64,000 nt of DNA from a virus (Duplodnaviria; Caudoviricetes): IMG/VR virus record IMGVR_UViG_3300043450_000376. The stretch is one strand, 5' to 3'. The notes below the pieces were generated by a model that worked only from the letters and a program-made list of their open reading frames with translations, made no database searches and was not told the origin of the DNA. The position numbers and the translations under genes are program-made. Positions 24,274 through 46,260 of the stretch are shown piece by piece (the stretch's first letter is position 1; each line of letters opens with the position of its first letter).

Positions 24274-24308
24274 TGGCAAATAAATAACTCAAATAAATCT
24301 ATTATAGG

Positions 24309-24944: not shown

Positions 24945-24971
24945 CTAGACTCACCTATATCTTAAATTACT

Positions 24972-24996
24972 AAAGAGGCGCCTAGCCTCTTTTTTT
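24972..24996 (+). terminator. intrinsic terminator
   Basis: AAAGAGGC-N5-GCCTCTTT + T run. Confidence 0.7.
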
Positions 24997-25062
24997 ATGC
25001 AGTATTCCTGGACCCCGCCGAGTGCGCCCGCGCAAGGGGGTTGGGGTTAAGAGTGGTGAGGC

Positions 25063-25635: not shown

Positions 25636-25637
25636 AG

Positions 25638-26288: not shown

Positions 26289-26291
26289 AGA

Positions 26292-26717: not shown

Positions 26718-26759
26718 AATAATATTGTTATAGTTATAAAGATATTTATTAGCAAAAGA

Positions 26760-27127
26760 CCTGGACAACAGCCCCCAAGCCAGGGGAAATTCGCCACCAG
26801 TAGAAATGCCCCGAGGAAAAGCCCCTGGATAAATGAATCTAGGCAAAAAGGTCTGGACCACTAGCCAAGCCGGGGAGACAAGAGAAAAAAGTAAAAATGC
26901 TTGCTTCCCCCTGGCTACAAAAACTTATACCAGGGATAGGCCCCGGGGCAGCCCCTGGACAGCTCCCCAGGGTCACCCAGGAGCAGTCTGGACCTGTCCT
27001 GGTGTACCCCAGGAGTCACCTGGAGACAGCTGCCAGGACGGTCCCCAGGGCAGCCAGGAGCAGTACCAGACCGGTCCTGGGTAGGTATTATATAGCCTCC
27101 TGGGCTAGCCTGACCAGCAGCTCCAGG
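26760..27127. repeat. GC-rich non-coding array of 17 CCWGG sites
   Basis: CCWGG at 26760,26780,26824,26910,26930,26954,26967,26977,26998,27009,27019,27033,27045,27054,27076,27099,27123. Confidence 0.85.
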
Positions 27128-27222
27128 CAGGTCTCCAGCCGGTCCAGCAGGAGGTATTGCACTAGCCCTGTACCTACTCTGCGCAGGTAAACCTATACCC
27201 CTAGCCTAGTATAATAACTATA

Positions 27223-27528
27223 ATGCTAAACCAAAAGGAGATGCCTGAATACTTATCTACACTAATTAAAGACCGAATCCTTACTGGGCTGGAAGGAGTA
27301 GGTCGAGACCAGCAGGCGATACGCCACTGTCTAGGCAAGATAGTCGAAGACCTAGGTAAAACAGCAGGCGAAGAGGATTGGAGTGCAGAGTATCTTGAAT
27401 ACTTATTACATGCTCTATACCATGCCTGTATTACTGCGCTCGACGTGGCGGTTGCTAGGGAAGAATATGAATGGGCTGCTGAGTTATTCTATCGGGTTAA
27501 ACGCGAAGCAGCTATAAACAAACTATAA
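27223..27528 (+). CDS. small protein with UVR-like motif
   Basis: AVAREEYEWAAEL; after AGTATAAT. Confidence 0.55.
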   Translation: MLNQKEMPEYLSTLIKDRILTGLEGVGRDQQAIRHCLGKIVEDLGKTAGEEDWSAEYLEYLLHALYHACITALDVAVAREEYEWAAELFYRVKREAAINKL

Positions 27529-27531
27529 CAT

Positions 27532-27717
27532 ATGCAGATACAAGACTTTAAACCGGGAGATACTATCCAATGGTTACAGAAATTCGAAGAGCTAGAAGCC
27601 CCTATCACGGGTATTGTAGAAGTAGTAGCACCAGACGTGCTAACTGTGCGCGATAACCTTGGCCAGTTTTGGCAGGTAACAGCTGAAGATAGCCCGACTA
27701 GCTGGGATAATTGTTAA
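27532..27717 (+). CDS. hypothetical SH3-like small protein
   Basis: FKPGDTIQW..GIVEVV..LTV. Confidence 0.5.
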   Translation: MQIQDFKPGDTIQWLQKFEELEAPITGIVEVVAPDVLTVRDNLGQFWQVTAEDSPTSWDNC

Positions 27718-27758
27718 TAACTTTATTTTTGGGTGTCAAGTTAATTGGTTATATTTAC
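27711..27758 (+). promoter_or_regulatory. early promoter, copy 1 (TGTTAATAAC box 38 bp upstream of TATATTTAC)
   Basis: TTGTTAATAACTTT..GTGTCAAG..TATATTTAC. Confidence 0.75.
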
Positions 27759-27779
27759 TCTATAACTAAATGATATACG

Positions 27780-28082
27780 ATGATACACAAAGAATTTAAA
27801 TTAACCGTTACCGAACCTATTCGCGAAGAGTCAGGTCGTAGTGTAAAGCCTGTCCACTGGAGTATTGGGCAAGAGTTAACCCTTAGCGAGGCCGAGTTTA
27901 GCAGGCTAAGAGGTGGCGAAGTTGTCGAGAGATTTACCAACGAAGGGAGACTCAGATTTGATAAGCACCATTTTGCAAATGGGGTCAGGGTAATTGAAAT
28001 AGAAATTACCGAGAGCGAGGTAAAGCTTGGTAATACTAGAGGTCGTAAAGAGGTAAAGCTATTTTTCAACAGCAGCATATGA
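27780..28082 (+). CDS. hypothetical early protein
   Basis: directly follows promoter. Confidence 0.6.
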   Translation: MIHKEFKLTVTEPIREESGRSVKPVHWSIGQELTLSEAEFSRLRGGEVVERFTNEGRLRFDKHHFANGVRVIEIEITESEVKLGNTRGRKEVKLFFNSSI

Positions 28083-28748: not shown

Positions 28749-28770
28749 GTAGAGAATCTCTTAAGCCTTG

Positions 28771-28799
28771 AACCTGCCCCGTAAGGCAGGTTTTTTTTT
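28771..28799 (+). terminator. intrinsic terminator
   Basis: AACCTGCC-CCGTAA-GGCAGGTT + T run. Confidence 0.8.
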
Positions 28800-28800
28800 G

Positions 28801-28852
28801 AAAAATAAGTAATAAAAAGTTTTTTAGTGTCAACTTAATTGTTTATATTTAC
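28801..28852 (+). promoter_or_regulatory. early promoter (no upstream box)
   Basis: AAAAATAA..TTTTTTAGTGTCAACTTAATTGTTTATATTTAC. Confidence 0.7.
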
Positions 28853-28880
28853 ATATCATTAATAACCTAAACAATCTATT

Positions 28881-29090
28881 ATGAAAGCATCTATTAAATT
28901 TTTATTGGGTTCAGTCTTATTCTTATCAATTGCGTTCTTAACTGCGAGCGGTCATGTCGGAAAGGTTATCCCATTTGCAGGAACATTAAATGAAATGGGA
29001 TTCTTTATGTTAAGCGGAGCAATGGGAATACTATACGCGATTGCTGGATTCTCAAGAGAATCTAGTGATACTAAAGGGAGTATAAGATAA
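28881..29090 (+). CDS. small membrane protein
   Basis: two TM helices. Confidence 0.6.
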   Translation: MKASIKFLLGSVLFLSIAFLTASGHVGKVIPFAGTLNEMGFFMLSGAMGILYAIAGFSRESSDTKGSIR

Positions 29091-29091
29091 T

Positions 29092-29376
29092 ATGAAGACA
29101 AAGAAAGACAGGCTATGGTTAGTCGAGATCTGGAATTCAGATATCCTAACCGGTCGCAGCGTGCTAACCACACTGAAAGGGGTACACCAATTTACTAAGG
29201 TCCAACTGGATGCAAAGACCCTAAATATTGAATACAAAACCCTATGTCGAGAAGCGGCGAGCAGGCCAGTTCTCCTATGGGATAGGAGCAAGTGGAATAC
29301 TGAAGAAGAAGCATTATACAATCCCGAAGCCCAGCACTGCCAGGTCTCGATCGTACCCTTAATTAAAATGAAGTAA
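29092..29376 (+). CDS. hypothetical early protein
   Basis: 1-bp gap after upstream gene. Confidence 0.55.
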   Translation: MKTKKDRLWLVEIWNSDILTGRSVLTTLKGVHQFTKVQLDAKTLNIEYKTLCREAASRPVLLWDRSKWNTEEEALYNPEAQHCQVSIVPLIKMK

Positions 29377-29398
29377 TAATTATTAAACAACAAATATA

Positions 29399-29527
29399 AT
29401 GTCTAAATTCAAACTTATAGTAAAAGGTGCTGGAGTTTACAAGTGCGATAGCTTAGGTTCCCTAATAATCGAAGTATTAAAGCATAGGTTTTGGCATTTG
29501 ATACATGATGGTAAATGGATGGATTAA
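29399..29527 (+). CDS. small protein (42 aa, not in ORF track)
   Basis: MSKFKLIVKGAGVYKCDSLGSLIIEVLKHRFWHLIHDGKWMD. Confidence 0.5.
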   Translation: MSKFKLIVKGAGVYKCDSLGSLIIEVLKHRFWHLIHDGKWMD

Positions 29528-29577
29528 AAATAATCTATTAAAAATTTTTTACTGTCAAATAAAAGTATTATATTTAC
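29525..29577 (+). promoter_or_regulatory. early promoter
   Basis: TTTTTTACTGTCAAATAAAAGTATTATATTTAC. Confidence 0.75.
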
Positions 29578-31323: not shown

Positions 31324-31349
31324 TTATAACCAATTAAACCCTATAGATT

Positions 31350-31556
31350 ATGAAAAGATTATTTTGTACATCAGTTACAGACTTTGATGGAAATTTTGAA
31401 AGTCCAATTATCTTCCACATCCGTGCCGAAACAACGGACGATGCTGAGAAGTGTACGCGCGAACATTTAGTAGAGTCCGGCTATGATAAAGAAACAATTG
31501 ATGAAACCTTTGACATGGTTACATTTGAAGTAACTGAGATATTAGAACAAGACTAA
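31350..31556 (+). CDS. hypothetical early protein
   Basis: follows promoter. Confidence 0.6.
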   Translation: MKRLFCTSVTDFDGNFESPIIFHIRAETTDDAEKCTREHLVESGYDKETIDETFDMVTFEVTEILEQD

Positions 31557-31631
31557 TTATTAATAACTTTTGAAAAAAGATTTTTTACTGTCAATAATTT
31601 TAGTTATATTTACTTTATAAAATAAACAAAC

Positions 31632-32143: not shown

Positions 32144-32860
32144 ATGGCAAAATTTGAAGCATCAACCAACTTACCAGCATACTTTAAAAGTATTGACAAA
32201 CTGGCGAAGCCTTTAAGCAAGGCTGCGGAAAAAGAATTAGCTATCCGGATTCAGGCCGGCGACGAGGCTGCAATGCACTCCCTAGTAAATGCTAACCTTA
32301 AGTTCGCTGTCAGCTTAGCGAATAAGTTTATTGGACTAGGCTTGCCTGTCGACGATCTTATTATGGAAGCTAACTGCGGTCTTATCGAAGCTGCAAAGCG
32401 TTTTACTCCAGAAAAAGATGTTAAGTTTATTACCTATGCACAGTTCTGGATTCGTAAGAAGTTAAATACTGCACTAGGCGAGTATGGTCGTACTGTACGA
32501 TTACCTATGAATCAGGAATACGATATCTACAAGCGCAAAATGGCTGGCGAAGATATCAACTTAACTAATATTAGATTAGACAAGCCAATCGGCGAAGATG
32601 GTTCTAATACCTTAGGCGATCTTATTCTTCGTGCAGAATTCGTGGATCCATTTGAAGAACAAAGCGTTGAGCAACAAGTTGCCGCAGTGTTAAGCAAATT
32701 AAATGACCATGATCGCAAGGTAATCGAGACTTTCTATGGAATCGACAGAGGCGAAGCTCGCTCTGCTAAAGAAACTGCTGATGAATTAGGAATGGAAGTT
32801 TCTAAAGTAAATCAAACTCTTCGATTAGCTCGTCACAAATTACGTAAAACTTTTAACTAA
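32144..32860 (+). CDS. RNA polymerase sigma70-family factor (regions 1.2-4)
   Basis: LVNANLKFAVSLA, DDLIMEANCGLIEAAKRF, KFITYAQFWIR, VRLP, region 4 HTH SAKETADELG. Confidence 0.92.
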   Translation: MAKFEASTNLPAYFKSIDKLAKPLSKAAEKELAIRIQAGDEAAMHSLVNANLKFAVSLANKFIGLGLPVDDLIMEANCGLIEAAKRFTPEKDVKFITYAQFWIRKKLNTALGEYGRTVRLPMNQEYDIYKRKMAGEDINLTNIRLDKPIGEDGSNTLGDLILRAEFVDPFEEQSVEQQVAAVLSKLNDHDRKVIETFYGIDRGEARSAKETADELGMEVSKVNQTLRLARHKLRKTFN

Positions 32861-33797: not shown

Positions 33798-33941
33798 ATG
33801 GATCCAAAAGAAAAAGAAGGGGCAGACTCAGCTGCGCAACAAGAGCTAGACCAATGGTTAAAGGATCTTGATAAAGAACTTGATAATCTTGAAGAAGAAC
33901 AAAAAGAGAGATGGGGACCAGATGGAAAACCTGAAGAATAA
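33798..33941 (+). CDS. small acidic protein (47 aa, not in ORF track)
   Basis: MDPKEKEGADSAAQQELDQWLKDLD.. Confidence 0.45.
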   Translation: MDPKEKEGADSAAQQELDQWLKDLDKELDNLEEEQKERWGPDGKPEE

Positions 33942-33943
33942 AA

Positions 33944-34011
33944 TGTTAATAACTTTTTTAAAAATAAATGAACCTGGATTTTTTTAATTCAGGTTTTTTT
34001 ATTATATTTAC
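33944..34011 (+). promoter_or_regulatory. early promoter, hairpin subclass; 65 bp identical to 39579-39643
   Basis: TGTTAATAAC..GAACCTGGATT-T5-AATTCAGGTTT..TATATTTAC. Confidence 0.8.
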
Positions 34012-34037
34012 ATATAACAAACTAACAAAGATATAAT

Positions 34038-34319
34038 ATGAACTACTCACAAATCCTTTCTCAAATCAACACCCTTTCTACTGCTGACCTTTCAAAGTTA
34101 AATGCAGATCTTATTGACATTATTAAATTACGTCGCAGACAAGAAGCGCGTATGGTAAAACGTTCTTTAATAATTGGGATGTCGGTTAGAGTTAACCATC
34201 CTAAAGCTGCGGGTAAAACGTTCGAAGTTGTTAAAATCAACCGCACCAAAATACATTTAAAAGAAGCTGGTAAATTAGGCATTATAATCGCTCCACTTAG
34301 TTTGACTGAGGCAATTTAA
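34038..34319 (+). CDS. hypothetical basic early protein
   Basis: follows promoter. Confidence 0.65.
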   Translation: MNYSQILSQINTLSTADLSKLNADLIDIIKLRRRQEARMVKRSLIIGMSVRVNHPKAAGKTFEVVKINRTKIHLKEAGKLGIIIAPLSLTEAI

Positions 34320-34335
34320 TAATAAACAAATCAAT

Positions 34336-34647
34336 ATGAAAATGACAAGAGAAGAACAGATTAACATCGTAAGGGCAGAGGTAGAAATATACCTTGATAA
34401 TAATGCTCAATGGACAGAACTCGTCGACCTATCGGAAAGTGAAAGAGTTCATATTATTGATATAGGAACCTCGATTCTCTGCACTAAGTGGAAGGTAGGA
34501 TATGAAGGTGGAAGCTTTGTACAGAGCTTTGTTGCTAACGATCTTATGGGTGCGATTGGTCGCGCAGATTATACAACATACAAAGGATTAAAATTCTTTG
34601 CAAACTTAGTCTATAATGTAGGAATACCAACTAAACTATTAAAATAA
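34336..34647 (+). CDS. hypothetical protein
   Basis: GGSFVQSFVANDLMGAIGRAD. Confidence 0.65.
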   Translation: MKMTREEQINIVRAEVEIYLDNNAQWTELVDLSESERVHIIDIGTSILCTKWKVGYEGGSFVQSFVANDLMGAIGRADYTTYKGLKFFANLVYNVGIPTKLLK

Positions 34648-34653
34648 AAAGAT

Positions 34654-34893
34654 ATGAAGATACACGAAAAGGCGAGAGCCTATGACGAATTAATGAAGGA
34701 TATAGATTCCTTTATTACTCAATTAGAGGAACACTCTAACTCCATTAAAGAAATCGATAAGGACGAAACTGGTAAAGACGGGATGGGATATTATCCTATG
34801 AAAGTAGGTCGTCTCGTTGGAAGCAACTTTGGTCTAGAGCTAAAGATTCAAAAAATGGTGGGTATATTAGAATGGTATAAGAAATTAAAGTAA
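34654..34893 (+). CDS. hypothetical protein
   Basis: coupled. Confidence 0.55.
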   Translation: MKIHEKARAYDELMKDIDSFITQLEEHSNSIKEIDKDETGKDGMGYYPMKVGRLVGSNFGLELKIQKMVGILEWYKKLK

Positions 34894-34914
34894 TCAATTA
34901 AATCAAATATAACT

Positions 34915-35217
34915 ATGGCAAAACTAAGCTTTAACCCTGGATCAGGAACCTCGTTCCACGACACTGTAATTACATGTTCTTATAACCAATTAGCCCAAGC
35001 AATTGGTGAGCCCCAGCATAGCGATAATACTGGCGAGGATAAAGTAAACTTCGACTGGAGGTGCGAGTTGGAAGACGGACAGATATTTACAATTTATGAT
35101 TGGAAAGAGTATAGACCAATTGGGAAAGACGAAATGATTGAATGGCATATTGGTGGTTACAACCATATTGTTACAGAGCAAGCTCTCATTGAGTTGACAG
35201 CACTCTTAGCACAGTAA
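34915..35217 (+). CDS. conserved phage hypothetical protein
   Basis: KVNFDW..FTIYDWK..EWHIGG. Confidence 0.65.
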   Translation: MAKLSFNPGSGTSFHDTVITCSYNQLAQAIGEPQHSDNTGEDKVNFDWRCELEDGQIFTIYDWKEYRPIGKDEMIEWHIGGYNHIVTEQALIELTALLAQ

Positions 35218-35341
35218 TATAGTTTCTATTATATCAAGAAATATAATCCAACAGGAGTGTCCCAGCGACCTCCTGTTCTGGGTTAGTATTAAAACCTTTT
35301 GGCTTATTCTAATAAAAGATATCAAAATAATACTTATATTC

Positions 35342-35701
35342 ATGTTTAAAGCGATCGCAAACTGGTTTAAAGGATTGTTAGGTAAAGCAGAACAAGAAGT
35401 AGTTAAGGACAAGCAAGTAGTAGATTCATTCGAGAAATGGTCAACTGTTGTTAATGAGATTCCTAAAGCAAAAGTTGAAGAGGTTAAAAAACCTTATCCA
35501 ATCGTAGCCGAAGAAACTGTAAAGCCTGCCCCTACTAAAGCTGAGAAGAACTCTCGTAAGAAAGATTCAACGAAGCCTGCTAAAGAGACAACTAAGACAA
35601 CTGCAAAGACGTCTAAGCCCTCTACAAAACCTGCGCAGAAGGCTGGCAAGCCAGCTGCAAAGACTACACCTAAGTCCAATACAACTAACACAACTAAGTA
35701 A
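35342..35701 (+). CDS. protein with histone-H1-like K/T/P/A-rich tail
   Basis: AKETTKTTAKTSKPSTKPAQKAGKPAAKTTPK. Confidence 0.6.
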   Translation: MFKAIANWFKGLLGKAEQEVVKDKQVVDSFEKWSTVVNEIPKAKVEEVKKPYPIVAEETVKPAPTKAEKNSRKKDSTKPAKETTKTTAKTSKPSTKPAQKAGKPAAKTTPKSNTTNTTK

Positions 35702-35928
35702 TGGTAAAGACACTAGTACTACACAGAGAAGACACAAAGGTAATATATTGCCTAGGTGGTGGCGAAGAAATCCAATTGAATAATGCGGTAATCCGTATTA
35801 CATTTCCGGAAACTACTCGTCAAATTAAGACCATTTCGTTTGGCACTCAAGAAGAAGCAGACTCTGCTTTTAAGGAGATTCAAGACTGGCTTGCTAGCAC
35901 GCTAGCCCAGTTGGTTATGGAACTATAA
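35701..35928 (+). CDS. hypothetical protein
   Basis: 1-bp overlap. Confidence 0.55.
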   Translation: MVKTLVLHREDTKVIYCLGGGEEIQLNNAVIRITFPETTRQIKTISFGTQEEADSAFKEIQDWLASTLAQLVMEL

Positions 35929-35931
35929 GAA

Positions 35932-36000
35932 TTGTTAATAACTTTTCTTAAAATAAGTCCTCAAAGATTTTTTTCTTTGAGGATTTTTTATTATATTAGC
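35932..36000 (+). promoter_or_regulatory. early promoter, hairpin subclass
   Basis: TCCTCAAAGA-T6-TCTTTGAGGA (35958-35983) before TATATTAGC. Confidence 0.8.
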
Positions 36001-36026
36001 TCTATAACCAATTAACTAAAGAAGAT

Positions 36027-36182
36027 ATGTGGACACTAGATTGCAGCTACTACAAGAAAGAATTCTCAACTCTACAAGAACTTATCGATGATGTCATGTC
36101 CAGCGGCATGGATCCAAATTACGAGATCCTGCGAGATGGCAAGCCTACGGGCGAAGAGCTATGGGATTTTATAGTCCCATAA
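36027..36182 (+). CDS. small protein (51 aa, not in ORF track)
   Basis: MWTLDCSYYKKEFSTLQELIDDVMSSGMDPNYEI..; between two promoters. Confidence 0.6.
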   Translation: MWTLDCSYYKKEFSTLQELIDDVMSSGMDPNYEILRDGKPTGEELWDFIVP

Positions 36183-36270
36183 TTTTTTGAAAATACGTGC
36201 TCAAATATTTTTTACTGTCAATTATTTTTATTATATTAGCTTTATATTAATCAACTAAACCCTTAAATGT

Positions 36271-36489
36271 ATGTATGTAATTATTAATCTTAATCACGAT
36301 GGTGATTCCTATTTCTTAACTGAAAACCTAGACAAAGCCCAAGCGGAGTTTAATGAGTGTTGCAAAGAAGACGAATATAACTTCAAAGTAATCCTATGTC
36401 GTCCAACTCTTGAAGGAACATTTGGATTTGGAAGTCGTGGCGAACTTTATGGTGCGGAGATCATTGAAGAATGGGAGAGAGAAGATTAG
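36271..36489 (+). CDS. hypothetical early protein
   Basis: follows promoter 36183-36240. Confidence 0.55.
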   Translation: MYVIINLNHDGDSYFLTENLDKAQAEFNECCKEDEYNFKVILCRPTLEGTFGFGSRGELYGAEIIEEWERED

Positions 36490-36500
36490 TCTCTCCCAAA

Positions 36501-36568
36501 TTGTTAATAACTTTATGAAAATAATTAATAAAAAGTTTTTTACTGTCAAATAAAAGTATTATATTTAC
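36501..36568 (+). promoter_or_regulatory. early promoter with upstream box (58-bp spacing)
   Basis: TTGTTAATAACTTT..TTTTTTACTGTCAAATAAAAGTATTATATTTAC. Confidence 0.8.
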
Positions 36569-36593
36569 TCTATAACCAATTAAAAAATAACAT

Positions 36594-37010
36594 ATGTCAA
36601 ATCAAATCGTGTTCGCCCGTTTCGGAATGGGACCAGACCCAAGAGTTTCAGAAGTATTAATGTCTGAAATTATTTTAAACAAAACTGACGCAAAAATTCT
36701 TCCACTTCCTGGAATTATTATCTCAGTTTTTAAAAGTGAGTTGACACCAACTCAAATTCGGGATCGTTTTAAAAACGATAGTGAGTTAAATGAAGTTCCA
36801 TTTATGGTTACGACCTTAGAAGATTTCGATATTAATCTTCCAGAAAAAATTCGTAAATCAGTTTTTGGTTTAGGTGAAACCTCATCACCAACAAGTTCCA
36901 CATCACACTTAACAATGGATGACTTATTGGAATTGATTTCAGTTAAAGGTTTAAGTGGACTAACCGTCGACGAAAAATCCAGACTCGATGTATTACGAAG
37001 TGAGTTTTAG
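36594..37010 (+). CDS. protein with DUF6576-like C-terminal helical domain
   Basis: MDDLLELISVKGLSGLTVDEKSRL. Confidence 0.55.
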   Translation: MSNQIVFARFGMGPDPRVSEVLMSEIILNKTDAKILPLPGIIISVFKSELTPTQIRDRFKNDSELNEVPFMVTTLEDFDINLPEKIRKSVFGLGETSSPTSSTSHLTMDDLLELISVKGLSGLTVDEKSRLDVLRSEF

Positions 37011-37033
37011 TTTAGTAGTTAATTGATAGAATT

Positions 37034-37060
37034 GGGAGAGCGAAAGTTCTCCCTTTTTTT
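37034..37060 (+). terminator. intrinsic terminator
   Basis: GGGAGA-GCGAAAGT-TCTCCC + T7. Confidence 0.8.
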
Positions 37061-37127
37061 GTTAATAACTTTTTGAAAAATAATTGACCCCAGATTTTTT
37101 AGTTTGGGGTTTTTTGTTTATATTTAC
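37059..37127 (+). promoter_or_regulatory. early promoter, hairpin subclass; no ORF downstream
   Basis: ACCCCAGATT-T4-AGTTTGGGGT (37087-37110) before TATATTTAC. Confidence 0.75.
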
Positions 37128-37222
37128 TATGTCAATCAATCAATAAGACGGGACGGTTCTGAACAAGGAAGCGGGAGGTATACTCCGACCTACCTCTATA
37201 TTTGGCTAGGATTACAGGAAAA

Positions 37223-37290
37223 TTGTTAATAACTTTTTGAAAATAAGTGTATAAAAGTTTTTTATTGTCAAACTAATTGCTTATATTTAC
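37223..37290 (+). promoter_or_regulatory. early promoter with upstream box
   Basis: TTGTTAATAACTTT..TTTTTTATTGTCAAAC..TATATTTAC. Confidence 0.75.
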
Positions 37291-37313
37291 TTAACCAATT
37301 AACTTAACTACAT

Positions 37314-37826
37314 ATGACAAATCAAATCAGAGCAGCTCGGCCAAACCTTAATCCAAAGTCACTACCAACCTTGGCGCTTGCAGGTAGAGCCAACATCACC
37401 TTCCGCAATAATGAACAACTTACCCACATGAACGTGCGTATCAAGCAGTTACGTGACAAGGAGGATCGCAAAAAGATGCTGCCTATTTACTACGTCAATA
37501 TCTCTCTATTGGCGGACGGGCGTAGCGGTCATCAGTTTGCAGGTACCCTATTTGCCGAGCCCTTAACCTATGTATTGGGCAAAGGAGTTACACCAAGCTC
37601 GCGACTGGCACAGGCTCTAGGCTGGGTGGTAGCTGCTATTAAGGACCCTACAATTTTGGGAACCCGAGTAGGTCTATTTCATAATGGGACCTGCTGCAAA
37701 TGTGGCTTGCCATTAACCCATCCAGAAAGTATCAATACTGCAATGGGACCTGTTTGTTTGGAGAGAGTAAAAGCCGCAATGACATCAGTAGACTTTTTCG
37801 ACACCTTTACCCCAATCGGGGTATAG
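37314..37826 (+). CDS. DUF6011-like Zn-finger protein
   Basis: CCKCGLPLTHPESINTAMGPVC. Confidence 0.7.
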   Translation: MTNQIRAARPNLNPKSLPTLALAGRANITFRNNEQLTHMNVRIKQLRDKEDRKKMLPIYYVNISLLADGRSGHQFAGTLFAEPLTYVLGKGVTPSSRLAQALGWVVAAIKDPTILGTRVGLFHNGTCCKCGLPLTHPESINTAMGPVCLERVKAAMTSVDFFDTFTPIGV

Positions 37827-37843
37827 GTTATACTTAGTTACAG

Positions 37844-37910
37844 TGTTAATAACTTTTTGAAAATAAGTAACAAAAAGTTTTTTACTGTCAAATAAAAGTA
37901 TTATATTTAC
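37844..37910 (+). promoter_or_regulatory. early promoter with upstream box
   Basis: TGTTAATAACTTT..TTTTTTACTGTCAAATAAAAGTATTATATTTAC. Confidence 0.8.
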
Positions 37911-37935
37911 TTATAACTAATTAAAACAAATAAAG

Positions 37936-38187
37936 ATGATTTTTCAAATAAAAAACGAAAGCAACGAGGTTGGACTGTTAAAAGTCGTTGAATGTATAGG
38001 AAATACCTGGTCTCCCGAGTCATATGGTGATATTATCAGTAAGTCATTAAAACTCTTTTCTGAAATAGGAGAGGCCGATGGATGGGATGTTGATGATCTT
38101 GATGATTTTGTGGAATTCAACAATCTGAGAAACGTATTAATTTTGGAGCATTTTTTTATAGTGGACGAAATACAATTTTATCAATAA
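37936..38187 (+). CDS. hypothetical acidic protein
   Basis: follows promoter. Confidence 0.55.
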   Translation: MIFQIKNESNEVGLLKVVECIGNTWSPESYGDIISKSLKLFSEIGEADGWDVDDLDDFVEFNNLRNVLILEHFFIVDEIQFYQ

Positions 38188-38229
38188 AATACTTATATTT
38201 ACTTTATAATCAATTAAACTATATACAAT

Positions 38230-38643
38230 ATGCAAGAAAATCAAGTAACTTTAGTGGACCAAATGTACGCATGGGGTCAAGGTGAATCAGCTCTCTACCC
38301 GCACTGTCATGACTTCTATGACTGGTTCTGTAGCGATGCTTCGCTCGATCGTAGAGCTAAATCCCTTCAGAGCAAGGTAATCAAGTTGGTAAAGTACTTT
38401 TGCAAAAATGGAAATCCAATCGATTGCAGCAAGGTGTATGTATTCTTTAAGAATAACTGTCCAATGGGCGGACCGCTTTATGATTCATTCTCTATCTGTG
38501 ATCGCGAATCAGGTGATGTTCTCTTTTGGGTAACTCCTAAATCCGGTCATAGCGGTAAAGCTGAAATCTTTTCACGCGCAAAGGGATTTAGCGATCCTTT
38601 GGCCGAAGCTGATAATTTCTCTCAACTCTTAAAATCTATCTAA
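38230..38643 (+). CDS. conserved phage hypothetical protein
   Basis: FYDWFC.D.SL, YVFFKNNCP..GPLYDSFSICD. Confidence 0.7.
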   Translation: MQENQVTLVDQMYAWGQGESALYPHCHDFYDWFCSDASLDRRAKSLQSKVIKLVKYFCKNGNPIDCSKVYVFFKNNCPMGGPLYDSFSICDRESGDVLFWVTPKSGHSGKAEIFSRAKGFSDPLAEADNFSQLLKSI

Positions 38644-38645
38644 CT

Positions 38646-38831
38646 ATGGCAACACAAGAAGCAATCGATGAAGCAATCGCGATATGGGGTCAAGACGCAG
38701 TCTATCAAGCAATGGAGGTCGTAGCAATGTCAGACCCCGATGGGGCCTACACAATGTTCGAAGATCTAGGAATCTTTGATCAAGCCGAGGTAGTAGAATT
38801 CCTCTATTTCGATGGGGCAGGTAATGAATAA
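38646..38831 (+). CDS. small acidic protein
   Basis: coupled. Confidence 0.55.
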   Translation: MATQEAIDEAIAIWGQDAVYQAMEVVAMSDPDGAYTMFEDLGIFDQAEVVEFLYFDGAGNE

Positions 38832-38881
38832 AGAGACTCCGTAGTAAGTATAATAATATTAATCAATTAAATCAAAGAACA

Positions 38882-39262
38882 ATGGGATTAGACATGTATG
38901 CACAGGTTCGCAGTAACAAGCCAAAAACTGCAGTAGACTTTAAAACTGAAGAAGGTGTTGAAGATCAGGAGTTACACTACTGGCGTAAGCACCCTAACCT
39001 GCACGGTTGGATGGAAAACCTATACTACCTTAAGGGCGGTACGGCCGAGAGTTTCAACTGCGTAAACGTGCTAATTGAGTCAGATGACTTAGACCAGTTA
39101 GAGCGTCATATTAAAGAGCGTCACCTACCTCAAACCGCTGGATTCTTTTTTGGTAATAGCCAATCCGATGAGCGTGAGATAGAAGACGATCTACAGTTTA
39201 TTAAAGAGGCGAGGAGAACGATCGCGGCTGGAGAGTATGTCTACTATACTTCATGGTGGTAG
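38882..39262 (+). CDS. conserved phage hypothetical protein
   Basis: MGLDMY..YWRKHPNLHGWM..GFFFG..Y.SWW. Confidence 0.7.
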   Translation: MGLDMYAQVRSNKPKTAVDFKTEEGVEDQELHYWRKHPNLHGWMENLYYLKGGTAESFNCVNVLIESDDLDQLERHIKERHLPQTAGFFFGNSQSDEREIEDDLQFIKEARRTIAAGEYVYYTSWW

Positions 39263-39322
39263 GCCCGCCTGCCCACTCCCTAGTAGATTAGGTATATTAA
39301 TAACTAGATAAATAACCCATAC

Positions 39323-39577
39323 ATGAACGAAATAAAAAGAGACCTTAAGACTTCACAAATGCTAGCCGAGCTGGTAAGTCTTCGTCATACAGATTTCGAT
39401 GCATTTATGAATCTGTTATATGATGCACTACAGCGCGAACTTAGCGGTGCTATCTTTGATGAGACTCCACTTACTGAAAAACAGGAAGCACTCAACTCAA
39501 TGATTCAATACTTTCAAGATAAGGAAGAATACGAGAAGTGTGCAGTGCTTAGGGACATGGTCCTAACGATCGAATAA
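39323..39577 (+). CDS. small protein with UVR-like motif
   Basis: QDKEEYEKCAVLRD. Confidence 0.6.
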   Translation: MNEIKRDLKTSQMLAELVSLRHTDFDAFMNLLYDALQRELSGAIFDETPLTEKQEALNSMIQYFQDKEEYEKCAVLRDMVLTIE

Positions 39578-39646
39578 TTGTTAATAACTTTTTTAAAAAT
39601 AAATGAACCTGGATTTTTTTAATTCAGGTTTTTTTATTATATTAGC
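39578..39646 (+). promoter_or_regulatory. early promoter, hairpin subclass (duplicate of 33944)
   Basis: 65-bp identity with 33944-34008; TATATTAGC. Confidence 0.8.
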
Positions 39647-39757
39647 TTATGTAGTTTAGACCCCAGCCGGACTCCGTAGTAAATAGATAACTAAAGAGCA
39701 GTGCCAAAAACTACTCTACATTAGTATAATAATAGTAATCAATTAAAAATCAAACAT

Positions 39758-40930: not shown

Positions 40931-42052
40931 ATGTTATCACAAGCACAATTTAACGAGGCAAAATTAGCCGCAATCAACACTGAACCGCTGACTAAACCCG
41001 TAATGCTAAGTGAGATCAAATTGAGTGACAATTCACAGAAGGATGGCTTCATCCACTTGAATGACTCAAGGGTCCCAGCTAGCGGCGCGTTTTTTAAACA
41101 GCTGGCTTCCCTACTTAACATCAACCAAACCTTAAACTCTAAGTTTGAGAAGAATGGTGATGCTGCAATCGGTAATAAACTTATCGGCGCAGTCAAGCAC
41201 TACACAGAGAACCGAGGTGGAGATGTTCCCCTAATGATGGTTGCAAATCGTGATCATCGCGAAATTACAGGTATCGTAAAGGCAGACAAGTTTGCACGTA
41301 TCTCTAATGAGACTCTATTTAAAACTGCAGAAGGAATCCTTAACGAGGTACCGGACATGCATATTGAGTCTATTGACAATGGTAACGGCACCAGTCGTAT
41401 TAACTTGATCCATACCAGTGAGGTAGGTTTTGAGCGTATCGGCCCAGACGAAGTATTCCGTTTCGGAGTTTCATTAGTGAACAGCCCTACACAAACTCAA
41501 GTAGATGATTTCTTCTACAGATTAGTATGTGCTAATGGCGCAGTTGCTAAAGACATGACAGCAGCCTTCCAATTAAAACAGGCAAATGCTACAGGTATTG
41601 CCGAGTTATTCCAATCCCTTAAAGCTTATGGTAAAACAGGTTTTGTACCGCGTGCCTTTGCTGAAAGATTAGAACGTGCAACCGGTACACGCGCAAGTTT
41701 GCAAGAGGTACAAAGAGCAGTGGACTCCGTAGTAGGTAACCTTAAACATGAGGATCCGGAAATGAGACGTCGTCTACAGGAAAGCGTAGTGGACAACCAC
41801 TTCCCAATGTATAAGTCTACCATGGCCAGAGTATTTAATGCAGGCCATAACCCAGATTTCTTAACAGACAAGCAAAAGAGTTTCGTTAAGACAGGTATGA
41901 GTGTATGGGATCTTGTCAACGAGTTGACTTGGTTAGGTAGCCATAACACTGTTGAAGAGTATGAAAACCGTGCACGCTTTAAAGCTGCAGGTGGAAGCCT
42001 CTTCGCTAAGAGTAACTATGATTTAGAAGCAGCACAGTTTGCGACTATATAG
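40931..42052 (+). CDS. DUF932/DUF945-like protein
   Basis: GVSLVNS....FYRLVCANG; WDLVNELTWLGSH. Confidence 0.6.
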   Translation: MLSQAQFNEAKLAAINTEPLTKPVMLSEIKLSDNSQKDGFIHLNDSRVPASGAFFKQLASLLNINQTLNSKFEKNGDAAIGNKLIGAVKHYTENRGGDVPLMMVANRDHREITGIVKADKFARISNETLFKTAEGILNEVPDMHIESIDNGNGTSRINLIHTSEVGFERIGPDEVFRFGVSLVNSPTQTQVDDFFYRLVCANGAVAKDMTAAFQLKQANATGIAELFQSLKAYGKTGFVPRAFAERLERATGTRASLQEVQRAVDSVVGNLKHEDPEMRRRLQESVVDNHFPMYKSTMARVFNAGHNPDFLTDKQKSFVKTGMSVWDLVNELTWLGSHNTVEEYENRARFKAAGGSLFAKSNYDLEAAQFATI

Positions 42053-42076
42053 TTTGATGATTGATTGATTAGGATT

Positions 42077-42100
42077 AGGCCCTCTACAAGAGGGCCTTTT
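42077..42100 (+). terminator. intrinsic terminator ending the early island
   Basis: AGGCCCTCT-ACA-AGAGGGCCT + T run. Confidence 0.8.
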
Positions 42101-42231
42101 TCTTTTAGGATAAAACCGTACTCCGTAGTAGAGTACAAGATCTTGGAGTTCTTATCCAGCTATTTAAATCTAGACCGTTTCAATAGCAAACCCAAAGGGA
42201 TCTGCGCAAGCTGATCCCTTCTTTTTTGGAG

Positions 42232-42360
42232 TCAGCGACCTTGTCCTTGATACTTCTTAGGTTTCTGTTCCTTAGGACCGAAGCTCTTCTTTGCCTTGCC
42301 AACCTTCTTTACAGTAGGACGGAAGGTAGAGCCAGCAGTTGCGCCTTTCTTTGTTGCCAT
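42232..42360 (-). CDS. small basic late protein (42 aa, not in ORF track)
   Basis: MATKKGATAGSTFRPTVKKVGKAKKSFGPKEQKPKKYQGQGR; TATAAATA at 42385-42392; hairpin 42195-42220 downstream. Confidence 0.7.
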   Translation of the reverse strand: MATKKGATAGSTFRPTVKKVGKAKKSFGPKEQKPKKYQGQGR

Positions 42361-42524
42361 TTCTAGACCGGGTTATTTTGCAATTATTTATAAGTTATAG
42401 GTATAATAGAAATAGGCCCAAAAGCCCGGGCCCATGCCGACGGGGCATAGGTATTTATGGTGACCCCGCTCCGTGGGGATCCCCGGCCCCTGGAGAAATG
42501 CTCCTCTATTAGGGCCGCCAGAAA

Positions 42525-42582
42525 TTGTTAATAACTTTATGCAAAAAGATTGTCAGGAGTCATGGAAAAGTGGTATATTAGC
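42525..42582 (+). promoter_or_regulatory. early-type promoter (48-bp spacing) with no convincing downstream ORF
   Basis: TTGTTAATAACTTT..TTGTCA..TATATTAGC. Confidence 0.6.
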
Positions 42583-42734
42583 TATAGGTAACCGGTTAAG
42601 AACTCCGACCCAGGGCTGGACCCAGCATAAGGATCCAGAAGAGTATACTCCGACCTGCCTCTCTCTAGGGGGCAGGACTAATGTACTACTCTATACAACG
42701 CATTAGTTTTGAACCAGTTAGACAACCCTAAGTG

Positions 42735-43367
42735 CTAGATACCAAGCTCCTTGGCGCTAGCGATTATATCGACCAGCTCCTCCTTGATTTCGTCGATATA
42801 TTCCTGTCGGCCAACCTTCGGCTGGATTATATGTATATCTACACCATGATAAATCAGTACCCGTTCAAGTATATCCCAAGCAAGGAATCTGGCTAGCCTG
42901 TCCGGGGTCTCGATAATCAGGGTGCTGACCTTTTTACGTACAACCAGATCCATAATTCGGTTCAAGCCCGGTGCATTATCATCTAGCCTGTTCGCGCGCC
43001 TAACCTCTTGGATTACCTCATCGACCCTGATACCCCGGGCTGTGCAGTAACCCTGTACCCGGTCTAGCTGGCTACGCAGCCTGCTCGTACTGGATATTCC
43101 GGCTGCCCCAGAGTCTGGAATGGGGCTCGTTCTACAATATATTATTACTAGCCTGTCTTGAGGTACTCTACTCCCTAGTAGATATAGTATCTGGTCTGAG
43201 TCTATATAGACCCTACCATTAACCCGGTTCTTCATAGGTGTTATCTTACCCTGTTCTATATAGCGACCTAGAGTTCGGGTAGTTACACCTAGTCTCTGCG
43301 CGGCTTCGCGACTACTTATTAATTCGCCAGTAGGCAAGGTCTGCGGTATCGTAGGTTCTATCTTCAT
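42735..43367 (-). CDS. tnpA: IS607-type serine recombinase (MerR-like HTH + resolvase catalytic domain), no adjacent tnpB
   Basis: SSREAAQRLGVTTRTL.RY, YCRTS nucleophile, DRLARF; GATAAATAA at 43374-43382. Confidence 0.8.
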   Translation of the reverse strand: MKIEPTIPQTLPTGELISSREAAQRLGVTTRTLGRYIEQGKITPMKNRVNGRVYIDSDQILYLLGSRVPQDRLVIIYCRTSPIPDSGAAGISSTSRLRSQLDRVQGYCTARGIRVDEVIQEVRRANRLDDNAPGLNRIMDLVVRKKVSTLIIETPDRLARFLAWDILERVLIYHGVDIHIIQPKVGRQEYIDEIKEELVDIIASAKELGI

Positions 43368-43500
43368 ATAGGGTTATTTATCTAGCCCCATACAGACAGC
43401 CTGGAACCCGGTGTCAGCGGATGTCTACTAGTGTCTACAGTTCCGGGTGGATCGCCCGACCCGAGGATTCCGTTGCGGGCCCCGAGTCGAGAGGCGCACC

Positions 43501-43630
43501 ACTCCGTAGTCCTTAAGTAGGACCAAGTGGGTCAGTCTGGGTCGGCTGGCTGCTGGCACTCCGTAGTCCCGGTATCTAGGCTAGGTGCTGGCTGGGGTCT
43601 AGCCTATATAGGTTACTCCGTAGTCCCGGT
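43501..43630 (+). repeat. three ACTCCGTAGTCC direct repeats at exact 57-bp period
   Basis: copies at 43501, 43558, 43615; last two extend to ACTCCGTAGTCCCGGT. Confidence 0.85.
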
Positions 43631-43843
43631 CTGGGCAGGTAGAGTCTATATAGGATTGGTGATAATATAGAGAAGAGTAGACTAGGAGGGTCTTATACCT
43701 AGGGTTAGGCTTGTTCTTTCTATTATTAATATAAGTAGAGAAAGTATCTATAGAAACAGGAGTAGTCTAGATATAGGTAGTATTATTATTGGTAAAGAGC
43801 CGCCCCTTTGAGTTTAGAGGCGGCAAAATACCTAGACCCGGTT

Positions 43844-44458
43844 TTAGCAGGCAAAATAGCCATGTACCCAGCCGCAATTATTAACCTGTAAGGTTGTACC
43901 GCCAGATGGAATATCAACATCATTAACATGGTACCAGCTACCCCCACCAAGGAAGGGCTGAGTCAAGGACTGGTCTAGCCAGATGCGGTCGACCTGTTGC
44001 CACTCCTCGCGCTGTACCCATACCGTCTGATTATACGGCCCTTGTAGATTACACTGGGTTGAGCTTGGCTGGGTGATCCTGACCTGGATAGCCTCGGGCT
44101 GGGCAATAGTTTCAATCGCTGCAATACCCGACGCGTTGTATTTTATTAGCTGGCTATCAATGCGATACCAGTTACCGTTAATTAAGGTCGCAATCTCTTG
44201 GCTTAGGCCGCTATCTAGATAGAGTCGGGCGCCAACCTCTAGGGTAGGGCTGCTTGGCCATACTTGAGCAAAGCTGCTATTGTTGCCGGCTAGACTCCAC
44301 CAGTCATTAATATCGCCATCGCCTTGTGCGCCAACAAATAGGCTGTCAAATTCATAGCCGTATCGCAATTGTAGAGAGTTGGTACAGGCAACAGTTAGTG
44401 TGGCGGCTGCTCCACCTGCTCGGCGGCCTAATAGGGTATAGTAGTAGTTATGATTCAT
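43844..44458 (-). CDS. hypothetical late beta-rich protein
   Basis: ATAAATA at 44482-44488; W/Y/G-rich. Confidence 0.6.
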   Translation of the reverse strand: MNHNYYYTLLGRRAGGAAATLTVACTNSLQLRYGYEFDSLFVGAQGDGDINDWWSLAGNNSSFAQVWPSSPTLEVGARLYLDSGLSQEIATLINGNWYRIDSQLIKYNASGIAAIETIAQPEAIQVRITQPSSTQCNLQGPYNQTVWVQREEWQQVDRIWLDQSLTQPFLGGGSWYHVNDVDIPSGGTTLQVNNCGWVHGYFAC

Positions 44459-44481
44459 AGGTATAGAGACTTTGTTATAGC

Positions 44482-44503
44482 TATTTATTATCCGGATAAA
44501 TAA
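44482..44503. promoter_or_regulatory. back-to-back T4-type late promoters
   Basis: TATTTAT-TATCCG-GATAAATAA between divergent genes. Confidence 0.65.
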
Positions 44504-44525
44504 TAAGAAAAGAGTTCTACTCTAT

Positions 44526-44948
44526 ATGAAGGCAAAATCATTTAGTCAATTTATTACCGAAGACCACAACGATGATGCACAACAACATCAGGTTTATCGC
44601 AGACTACAGGGGCTTGGACTTGCTGACTCTCCACTTGAAGGATTGGAGAAGATGTTGATACAGCGCCGCTGGAAATGGGAAAAGGTTGATAGCGACCGCA
44701 CCTTTGCAATTGAGCTAACCCGATGGGAAGCTGAGTCGACCTATCTGTCGCGAATGGGTGCGCGCCACCAAAAGAAATATCCTAATGTCTACTATTTTAG
44801 TGTAACTGATCTAGGTGCCGAGCCCAATCAGGTTCGAATCCTGTGGTATTCAAGTAAAGACTCTGTTAAGGAGGTGCAGGTTGCCGCAGAGCCAGAGGTA
44901 ATAGTACGCAAGATTGAACAATTATTTGGTGAACGCAGTGCAGATTAA
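44526..44948 (+). CDS. late protein with leader and RLxxLGL motif
   Basis: MKAKSFSQFITE|D..RRLQGLGL. Confidence 0.7.
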   Translation: MKAKSFSQFITEDHNDDAQQHQVYRRLQGLGLADSPLEGLEKMLIQRRWKWEKVDSDRTFAIELTRWEAESTYLSRMGARHQKKYPNVYYFSVTDLGAEPNQVRILWYSSKDSVKEVQVAAEPEVIVRKIEQLFGERSAD

Positions 44949-45375
44949 CAGAGCCAACATATCAGAAGCATTTTCATTTGGGGCATGGCAGCGACTACAG
45001 GATCTGGGCCTAAGCGAAGAAGGTATTGTTGCAAAGCGTATTGAACTATATCGCAAGCTGGTAAGTCAGGTTGTAGATCCAGAAGAATTTAAAAGGGTTC
45101 TAGTTGAACTTGGTCTCGCTATTATTAAGGTTAACGTTACCCGCAATAAAGGCTATGCTATGCACCAATCGGTTGCCATTGCTGGGCCAGAAGAGGCGTT
45201 TGAAGAATTAGATAGGTGGTGGCATAGTCAAACTGGTCGAGACTGTCCACTATACCTGCACCTTGAGCCTCACCATGCAAATAGCCCGCTGGTTAGGGAT
45301 CGTTGGGAAAGGGCAGTTTCAAGCGGAACCCCATTTACAGTTGGTGCGCTTAGCGACCATGCTGCAAAATTATAA
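44914..45375 (+). CDS. protein with RLxxLGL motif
   Basis: NISE|A..QRLQDLGL; start codon uncertain. Confidence 0.55.
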   Translation: MNNYLVNAVQINRANISEAFSFGAWQRLQDLGLSEEGIVAKRIELYRKLVSQVVDPEEFKRVLVELGLAIIKVNVTRNKGYAMHQSVAIAGPEEAFEELDRWWHSQTGRDCPLYLHLEPHHANSPLVRDRWERAVSSGTPFTVGALSDHAAKL

Positions 45376-45384
45376 TTAAGTACT

Positions 45385-46260
45385 ATGAAAAAATTAATAC
45401 TATTAACCCTATTGGTCCTAACCTGCTTTACTGCCACTTCACAAGTTGCGCAAGATACGGTTAAGCTTACTCCGCAAGAACTATTTGAATTTAATTCAGA
45501 GTGGTTGAGCTTGGGCACAACACAGTCCTATATTGATTTTTCAAAGGATGTCCTAAATACATCAGATCTTTCGCTTGGTATAGTTGGTCGTAAGGTTTCA
45601 ACTACCCTCAACTTGACCCTTAACAGGGCGTCAACTAGTGGTAAGTGGAGCCATGCTGGTATACTATCCATAAATCCAGGTTGGAAATATTATGGTGTAG
45701 GTTATGGCCTTACCCGAAAGCGGGCCAATCGCAGCACAACTTTACAAGTAGTTGGTTCGGCCGACTTTGATTTTCAGAAAAATATTAACATTTCGCTAAT
45801 CGATATGGTTAAAACCCGCCGCTTTGGTAACTTTGGTTATAACCTAACTGCAAGCCAAACCTGGTGGGGTGAGTGGCAAGGCCCATGGCAAGGTGAATAC
45901 ACAGTAGATTCGCTAGGCAATTGGGTTGCTAACATCTATCCAACGATGCCACCTTCTAGACAGCTAACAACCCGTGCGATGATTGTCTATTCCTATCCGG
46001 TTAAATTAAGACGGGTTACCCTTTCACCACAACTTATTTTAGTTAGTGATATTCATAAATCATTTAGTGATGGTACTCTTAATATTAGTTATCTAGCAGA
46101 TTTTAACATTGATGCCTATTATGGGGTACAGGCTGACTGGAAAATAGGCAAGCACTTTATCCTAAATAGCGGTCTTAGATTTAATAGCACAATTGAAAAA
46201 AACAGTCAAGATTTTAAAAAGAGTAATCCAATTCTTTTTTCAATCGGCACCGGCTTCTAG
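45385..46260 (+). CDS. predicted outer-membrane beta-barrel protein
   Basis: signal peptide ..TATS|Q; alternating beta strands; C-terminal ILFSIGTGF. Confidence 0.55.
   Translation: MKKLILLTLLVLTCFTATSQVAQDTVKLTPQELFEFNSEWLSLGTTQSYIDFSKDVLNTSDLSLGIVGRKVSTTLNLTLNRASTSGKWSHAGILSINPGWKYYGVGYGLTRKRANRSTTLQVVGSADFDFQKNINISLIDMVKTRRFGNFGYNLTASQTWWGEWQGPWQGEYTVDSLGNWVANIYPTMPPSRQLTTRAMIVYSYPVKLRRVTLSPQLILVSDIHKSFSDGTLNISYLADFNIDAYYGVQADWKIGKHFILNSGLRFNSTIEKNSQDFKKSNPILFSIGTGF

Follow-up and report, generated by a model that had tools for sequence, protein, structure and literature searches.

In a 64,000-nucleotide stretch of the virus record IMGVR_UViG_3300043450_000376 (Duplodnaviria; Caudoviricetes), here called the window, a repeated early promoter occurs with and without a hairpin followed by a T-tract around its -33 position, and four copies carry the hairpin. 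We propose that each hairpin is the Rho-independent terminator of the upstream gene, embedded in the early promoter of the next gene, and estimate the probability of this explanation at about 80%. The anatomy of the element, its conservation, the covariation of its stems, its strand asymmetry and its genomic context were observed directly.

In the proposed arrangement, the two arms flank the -33 T-run, which becomes the loop and the top of the stem, and the U-tract of the terminator would fill the promoter spacer (approximately -19 to -13). As double-stranded DNA, the element should still act as a promoter. In RNA arriving from upstream, the hairpin and the U-tract should form, and the transcript would be released a few bases before the -7 box. 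Termination and initiation at the hairpin copies are predicted here from DNA sequence. A stop-and-restart cassette of ~90 bp could insulate small early genes from one another and, because it is repeated, may also serve as a recombination site for gene gain and loss.

Hairpins within a repeated early promoter

About 18 intergenic copies of the promoter, all on the + strand, lie between 27.7 and 42.6 kb of the window. They precede open reading frames (ORFs) of 47-372 aa, the majority of which have no Pfam or PHROG match. An AT-rich upstream part, carrying often TGTTAATAAC (12 copies) and then TTTTTGAAAATAA, is followed by a variable part, AAAAG, TTTTTT, ACTGTCAAATAAAAGTAT, TATATTTAC, a leader of 20-30 nt and the ATG. 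In hairpin-free copies the stretch with the T-run that leads to the box reads AAAAG-TTTTTT-ACTGTCAAA. A representative hairpin-free copy at 36502-36568 (+ strand), with TGTTAATAAC and then AAAAAG, TTTTTT, ACTGTCAAATAAAAGTAT and TATATTTAC, folds at -0.9 kcal/mol, and the same promoter is found at 37844-37910 (+ strand).

The promoter appears to be of the Bacteroidota -33/-7 type. Bacteroidota sigma-A promoters have a -33 TTTG and a -7 TAnnTTTG, and the -7 element spans -12 to -5 in Flavobacterium johnsoniae (PMC6847099). The -7 box in the window, TATATTTA, fits TAnnTTTG (TATATTTA/G). Most copies have TATATTTA itself; 17 of 168 promoters from the window and IMG/VR have TATATTTG, as does the homologous copy in Chryseobacterium phage MA9V-1. 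The T-run lies ~20 bp upstream of the box, where the -33 TTTG is expected, and hairpin and hairpin-free copies alike conserve a TTT 24 to 22 nt ahead of the box, corresponding to -36 to -34 in F. johnsoniae numbering. By host spacing alone, the T-run would be the -33 element. Since the TTT matches the -33 position, ACTGTCAAA is read as spacer and not as the -33 element. A second assignment, ACTGTCAAA as a sigma-70-like -35 element (TTGACA reversed), was rejected: it lies 11 bp from TATATT, and with the spacing of the host the -33 element falls in the T-run.

The upstream part of the promoter is widespread. The exact 23-mer TGTTAATAACTTTTTGAAAATAA, at 33944-33966 and in other copies, is found in at least 119 IMG/VR stretches on ~90 contigs of 4-294 kb, whose proteins are as little as ~60% identical. 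Among 185,579 bacterial species genomes it occurs only in one 11-kb contig of a metagenome-assembled genome binned as Cryomorphaceae, which is probably phage DNA. The upstream element is thus kept far more strongly than the genes, suggesting that it is a putative protein-binding site; GTTAATAAC is a 9-bp palindrome. A literature search by motif strings returned no description of this promoter or of its hairpin class.

The four hairpin copies, all on the + strand, were found where the preliminary description had placed hairpins with a T-rich loop and a following T run. In HP1 (composite element 33944-34011), TGTTAATAAC at 33944-33953 precedes a 5' arm at 33970-33980, a TTTTT loop at 33981-33985 and a 3' arm at 33986-33996. 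The arms form 11 pairs, two of them G.U, the T-tract extends to 34000, and the -7 box TATATTTA is at 34003-34010; the upstream ORF stops at 33939-33941 and the downstream ORF starts at 34038. HP2 (35933-36000) has 12-13 pairs between arms at 35956-35967 and 35974-35985, with six T in the loop (35968-35973), then a T-tract and the box TATATTAG at 35992-35999; it lies between an ORF stop at 35926-35928 and an ORF start at 36027. HP3 (37060-37127) has arms at 37086-37096 and 37101-37111, a TTTT loop at 37097-37100, 11 pairs including two G.U, a T-tract and its box at 37119-37126. HP4 (39579-39646), behind an ORF stop at 39575-39577, has arms at 39605-39615 and 39621-39631, a loop at 39616-39620 and the box TATATTAG at 39638-39645. 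All four hairpins are followed by 6-7 T and then by a common box, TATATT(T/A)(A/G)C. HP1 and HP4 belong to an exact repeat of 65 bp (33944-34008 = 39579-39643), so there are three distinct stems, not four. These differ in sequence and all pair, some through G.U, as had been described; the G.U pairs are in HP1/HP4 and HP3. An exact search with the HP1 hairpin in IMG/VR, in which the window's own contig is not included, gave no match.

TGTTAATAAC and the box are 59 bp apart in each of the four hairpin copies and 58-59 bp apart in hairpin-free copies, so the hairpin arose by replacement, not insertion. Insertion of a miniature inverted-repeat transposable element or a repetitive extragenic palindromic element was rejected because of the unchanged element length (58-59 bp). 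The hairpin had been described as taking the place of the -33 region. It does replace the flanking AAAAG and the spacer ACTGTCAAA at the same position; the T-run at -33 itself is retained in the loop and stem top.

On the + strand, HP1 to HP4 fold as RNA at -14.3, -17.3, -17.0 and -14.3 kcal/mol, with z-scores of -5.1 to -6.3, and 0 of 200 shuffles were as stable. Four hairpin-free copies fold at -0.9 to -1.1 kcal/mol (z > 0). The minus strand folds worse (HP1 -7.7, HP2 -13.6 and HP3 -8.2 kcal/mol), as G.U pairs become C.A.

Pairing, strand asymmetry and terminator hallmarks in the promoter family

A profile built from the copies and searched with nhmmer identified 205 unique promoters in the window and in IMG/VR loci, which fall into two groups by the folding energy of the 48 nt before the box. 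A strong inverted repeat is present in 53 of them (5.9 expected from shuffles, maximum 10), and its loop centre lies 20.5-21.5 nt before the box, at about -33, in 35 of the 53. In 44 of the 205 promoters the hairpin occupies the slot of HP1 to HP4. Their 33 distinct stems are 9-12 bp long and enclose T-rich loops of 4-8 nt, with the centre near -33; the pairs are 305 Watson-Crick, 23 G.T, 2 A.C and 3 other.

Covariation was counted on a box-anchored, ungapped alignment. At the named register 80.5% of the cells are paired; sliding the partner by 1-3 columns lowers this to 25-43%. Changes on both sides occur in 7 of 9 pairs, and double changes number 43 cells versus 17.9 +/- 3.2 in shuffles, none of 500 reaching 43. 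That the structure is under selection had been suggested from three stems; the 33 stems bear this out with stronger support than three could give. RNAalifold found no consensus structure for the 33 hairpins, because the copies occupy two or three registers that are one or two bases apart. Loci L078, L088, L019 and L032 show possible intermediates, an 8-bp hairpin of the same slot with GTCAAC still at its end and without a T-tract and, in L019, its decayed form. These hint at interconversion of hairpin and hairpin-free copies.

The asymmetry between the strands bears on whether the inverted repeat acts as DNA or as RNA. A cruciform extruded under supercoiling at -33 could gate sigma binding and tune the firing of the promoter. 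Repeats of 10-12 bp with AT-rich centres placed exactly on -33 are consistent with this idea, and HP2, a perfect palindrome, folds on either strand. Pairing on both strands is required for a cruciform, yet the stems contain 23 G.T and only 2 A.C, and the minus strands of HP1 and HP3 lose about half of the folding energy. The cruciform model also gives no role to the downstream T-tract or to the co-directional gene upstream, and one relative (L132) has an upstream terminator in place of the embedded hairpin. We regard a cruciform switch as very unlikely.

A second DNA-based explanation is that these are promoters of the N4 type, in which a virion single-subunit RNA polymerase recognizes a DNA hairpin on the template strand. 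The N4 hairpin is centred at -11 and consists of a stem of 5-7 bp and a loop of 3 nt; purines at -11/-10, G at -8 and C at +1 are conserved (PMC4496689). The window hairpins do lie just upstream of early-type genes in a phage, and a start at a fixed distance past the stem would fall near the box. However, the stems are 9-12 bp long, the loops of 4-8 T are on the coding strand and centred at about -33, and the wobble pairs become mismatches on the template strand. At least two thirds of the copies have the same box and no hairpin. The polymerase searches, made at the sequence level, covered the window and its relatives G001 and G002 (94% complete), not the full genome of the window. The N4 virion RNA polymerase had no tblastn match in the window, G001 or G002 (E >= 5.8), and PF00940 had none in G001 or G002, a weak negative as no control genome matched either. 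The RNA polymerase beta-prime domain PF00623 is absent from G002, while the control matched in 14 of 14 genomes. No match to a polymerase was obtained for the largest G002 ORFs (2039 and 1498 aa). G002 encodes three sigma-70-family factors; three sigma genes without an RNA polymerase core subunit would fit a phage sigma cascade acting on the host core enzyme. We consider N4-type promoters extremely improbable. The preliminary description had offered a cruciform or N4-type single-stranded hairpin promoter as one of two possibilities and a search for a virion RNA polymerase as a check. Neither form of hairpin promoter agrees with the A.C pairs that would arise on the template strand, with the stem, loop and position of the hairpins, or with hairpin-free copies that share the same core, and no T7-like, multisubunit or N4-like RNA polymerase was detected in G002.

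The other possibility raised there, a fused terminator-promoter insulator, agrees with the hallmarks of the family: the hairpin and the T-tract co-occur, the wobble pairs are on the + strand, a gene ends upstream, and the box and a downstream gene are kept. Of the hairpin copies, 40 of 44 have five or more T among the 7 nt that precede the box, compared with 22 of 124 hairpin-free copies (p = 3e-18). A co-directional ORF stop within 110 nt upstream of the box is found for 44/44 hairpin and 95/124 hairpin-free copies (p = 1e-4); in the window, the upstream stops are 29-76 nt before the hairpin.

The 3' ends of terminators in and near these promoters cluster at three positions relative to the box: -10 to -6 (37 copies), -66 to -63 (5) and -53 to -51 (3). 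These slots are the places where the promoter supplies a T-run, the -66 to -63 slot just before TGTTAATAAC and the -53 to -51 slot just before TTTTTGAAAA. All three are used in the window. A separate terminator-like hairpin at 37034-37060 (+ strand; hairpin 37034-37053) has 8 pairs and a T7 run that merges into the TGTTAATAAC of the HP3 promoter, at about -66. A second at 28770-28800 (+ strand; hairpin 28770-28792) has a T-run merging into the TTTTTGAAAAATAA part at about -52 of a promoter that lacks TGTTAATAAC and has its box at 28844. The third, at 36160-36188 (+ strand; hairpin 36160-36181), overlies the end of ORF 36027-36182, and its T-run merges into TTTTTTGAAAATA at about -51 of the promoter with its box at 36232.

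The promoter parts outside the arms are retained in the hairpin copies. Their boxes are TATATTTA (27), TATATTTG (12), TATATTAG (4) and TATATTAA (1), and 39 of 44 have an ORF of 35 or more codons that begins ~33 nt past the box; among hairpin-free copies, 117 of 124 have one at ~35 nt. A gene behind a terminator and without a promoter would be silent, which argues that the embedded promoter fires. It is conceivable that the hairpin copies are terminators only, the promoter having been killed by the replaced -33 flanks and the box being a relic. Consistent with this, ACTGTCAAA is conserved in the hairpin-free copies of the window and lost from all four hairpin copies, HP3 and HP4 are followed by non-coding sequence, and after HP4 another type of promoter precedes the next gene. 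A relic would not be expected to keep a -7 box as intact as that of hairpin-free copies, an ORF start at the same offset, the T-run at -36 to -34 that is conserved in both classes and, in many relatives, a TGTC within the 3' arm. Loss of the promoter therefore seems quite unlikely to us.

Orthologous sites, gene cassettes and counter-evidence

Comparison with relatives showed how the hairpins change at single sites. Relative L121 is 88% identical to the window over 4.5 kb. At the HP4 site it has near-identical flanks and an HP3-type stem instead; compared with HP4, three pairs are changed on both sides, two are changed via wobble and none is broken. The HP3 site, traced through the conserved sequence behind HP3, has in L133-L136 and G002 an intermediate stem that is one compensatory pair away from HP1 and two from HP3. 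In L132, the HP3 site is a hairpin-free promoter with a separate upstream terminator, the T-run of which merges into TTTTTGAAAA. A terminator appears to be kept at the HP3 junction while its placement relative to the promoter varies, and this site, where L132 has its terminator upstream of the promoter instead of inside it, further favours the terminator-promoter insulator.

Genes between promoter copies differ among close relatives. Window positions 37303-38192, which hold two ORFs, are missing from L121. Both junctions fall within promoter copies, in the box and leader; the left one is in the hairpin-free copy at 37224-37290 (+ strand). Contigs from public sequencing runs join 28842 to 29568 and 37291 to 38216 (with 13 other letters between), and in others 31338-31573 is replaced by 152 other letters. 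A further cassette site in these comparisons is 31285/36531. Such differences indicate that the gene cassettes between promoter copies are shuffled in natural populations in the manner of the promoter-early stem-loop (PeSL) cassettes of T4-type phages.

These junctions could also mean that the palindromes are protein sites, for instance of a recombinase or homing enzyme that moves cassettes, and that RNA folding is incidental. The gain and loss of cassettes at junctions in these promoters and the swap of hairpin type at one orthologous site point in that direction, and the PeSL authors raised the same idea for G-rich stems. A protein site should keep its sequence, though, and the 33 different stems keep pairing only, tolerating G.T and not A.C. 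The junctions lie at the box and leader and also between hairpin-free copies, so the whole repeat, and not the hairpin, explains the recombination. We judge a protein site to be very improbable.

Several observations weigh against an embedded terminator with an active promoter. The hairpin set was chosen for having hairpins, so the percentage of paired cells is partly circular, and common descent links many of the 33 stems, which inflates the counts relative to the number of independent events. The position and register of the hairpins, the T-tract, the strand asymmetry and the tests of context and association are not circular. Four of the 44 hairpin copies, for example that of L088, have no T-tract. 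The T-run lacks the G of the TTTG consensus, and its assignment as the -33 element is by spacing alone. In the window, no gene directly follows HP3 or HP4. Contigs from RNA runs (Logan) break at the promoter repeats, so that RNA ends are unreadable there; in four freshwater metatranscriptome runs the breaks have 30-nt overlaps at 33979/34008 and 39614. A single RNA-library contig (X15, 33979-36527) extends straight across HP2; the depth of this run is flat, and the crossing could therefore represent read-through or carried-over DNA. Among the contigs listed for runs X16-X18 no hairpin copy was bridged, which we did not use as evidence.

Downstream of HP3 is a conserved stretch of ~95 nt without a conserved reading frame or a gene. 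In the window, 37128-37223 has no ORF, only an ATG and five codons followed by TAA. From 37147 (GACGGGACGG...) the sequence is conserved near base for base in six IMG/VR contigs (L132-L137), and the frame varies: some contigs have an ORF of 27-29 aa, the window has a stop and L132 is shifted. The stretch could be a candidate small early RNA. Its fold z-score is only -0.8, and it has no Rfam match.

The overlap of terminator and promoter may be more than a compact layout. The polymerase that has just terminated, perhaps still with sigma, could be handed to the embedded promoter and restart on the DNA. Recycling of polymerase after termination has been seen in single-molecule studies. If such coupling occurs, RNA would be released ~1-7 bp before the -7 box, a hairpin copy would act as a reset, replacing read-through from upstream by a new transcript whose 5' end is defined, and the element would be a natural case of post-termination recycling. 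We consider this functional coupling unlikely.

The phage and its likeness to known systems

The window has a GC content of ~36% and tightly packed genes. Two blocks of 45-47% GC (24000-28000 and 42000-46000) border the early-gene island, which has 35-36% GC. Scans of the window for Rfam families and tRNAs gave no match. Subunits of a T4-like topoisomerase II are encoded at 56424-59611. Their nearest relatives by tblastn are in uncultured jumbo or huge phages of 460-640 kb (~54% identity), and the next matches are in Chryseobacterium and other large phages (~37%). Behind one early-promoter copy, a gene for a sigma-70-family factor with regions 1.2, 2 and 4 is located at 32144-32860 (+ strand); as context, transcription in the window depends on sigma factors. 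Relative G002, a 253-kb IMG/VR contig rated 94% complete, has gene order in common with the window at ~70% nucleotide identity and carries 11 promoter copies in 8 kb, two with embedded hairpins. The region is represented in public runs, which are metagenomes and metatranscriptomes from freshwater. The window belongs to a large freshwater phage, most likely with Flavobacteria as host. Megablast of 10 kb of the window against cultured phages gave no match, and a search for relatives of ORF 36594-37010 found none.

Two further features of the early region were noted. A second promoter-like class, conserved in L121, consists of CTCCGTAGTAA or CTCCCTAGTAG, then GTATAATAAT and a TCAATTAAA leader (38833-38870, 39262-39320 and 39668-39745); it precedes the ORFs at 38882, 39323 and 39758. 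Contigs of the RNA runs X16 and X17 begin or end with adapter sequence at 34897, 35214, 35342, 28640 and 40816, and such ends can mark abundant, defined RNA ends. Position 35342 is the ATG of a Lys/Thr/Pro-rich ORF of 119 aa, and its bin has the highest depth in three runs.

The element combines parts of several known systems. Like Bacteroidota sigma-A promoters, it has a box fitting TAnnTTTG, a T-run ~20 bp upstream and an AT-rich upstream region. Unlike them, it usually has A or T/C in place of the final G of the two elements, and ~45 bp of the upstream part are conserved far beyond what is seen in host promoters. Like intrinsic terminators, the hairpin has a GC-containing stem of 9-12 bp, a short loop and a 3' T-tract of 5-7, lies just after a co-directional stop codon and has strand-specific G.U pairs. 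It differs from them in that the U-tract is the promoter spacer, and its loop is constrained to a T-run because the loop doubles as a promoter element. N4 early promoters share the presence of a hairpin in a phage early promoter region and differ in stem length, loop size and sequence, paired strand and start-site position; here the hairpin is also optional. Parts of the element also occur in cultured phages of Chryseobacterium, Flavobacterium and Cellulophaga. Pattern scans of MA9V-1, Flavobacterium phage immuto and the huge phage LR756500 found one convincing copy, in MA9V-1, and no hairpin copy, and no cultured model phage for the hairpin class was found.

The stop-and-restart layout has practical implications. 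The hairpin copies represent a natural experiment, suggesting that -45 to -13 can be rewritten as a terminator if the T-run at -36 to -34, the spacing and the -7 box are kept. For Flavobacteria and other Bacteroidota, which have few genetic tools, the ~90-bp units are candidates for compact promoter-terminator parts. The promoter element may also serve as a marker for the early regions of abundant uncultured freshwater and marine phages.

The closest likeness is to the PeSL cassettes. These are repeated intergenic elements of ~100 bp in which a strong early promoter with AT-rich sequence upstream is combined with a terminator stem-loop, which overlaps the -35, lies between -35 and -10, overlaps the -10 or is located upstream; reporters demonstrated both promoter and terminator activity, and gene shuffling is mediated by the cassettes (Arbiol et al. 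2010, PMC2839356; Comeau et al. 2014, PMC4122927). The window element is likewise a repeated intergenic element of ~90-100 bp between small early genes of mostly unknown function. Judged by sequence, it has a putative host-type early promoter, an AT-rich upstream part and a predicted stem-loop terminator. In both systems the stem-loop can lie over the -35 or between -35 and -10 and contains G.T pairs, and genes are gained and lost among close relatives with junctions in the elements.

The differences are also clear. The host phylum and promoter grammar here are Bacteroidota -33/-7, compared with sigma-70 -35/-10 for PeSLs. There is no sequence homology, and the stems here are not of the G-run/C-run type. 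One slot centred on -33 dominates here (37 of 47 nearby terminators), whereas the stem-loops of PeSLs are spread over five position classes. For PeSLs there are measurements of promoter, terminator and mini-circle activities, whereas here the anatomy is read from the DNA. PeSLs are carried by T4-type myoviruses; the window encodes a T4-like topoisomerase II, with its nearest relatives in uncultured jumbo or huge phages. By anatomy, context and evolutionary behaviour, we regard the hairpin promoters as the likely Bacteroidota-phage counterpart of PeSL cassettes. The stop-and-restart design of T4-type phages would then also have arisen in phages of another host phylum with another promoter grammar, and the cassette is probably a general answer to the packing of small early genes that are independently expressed and easily swapped.

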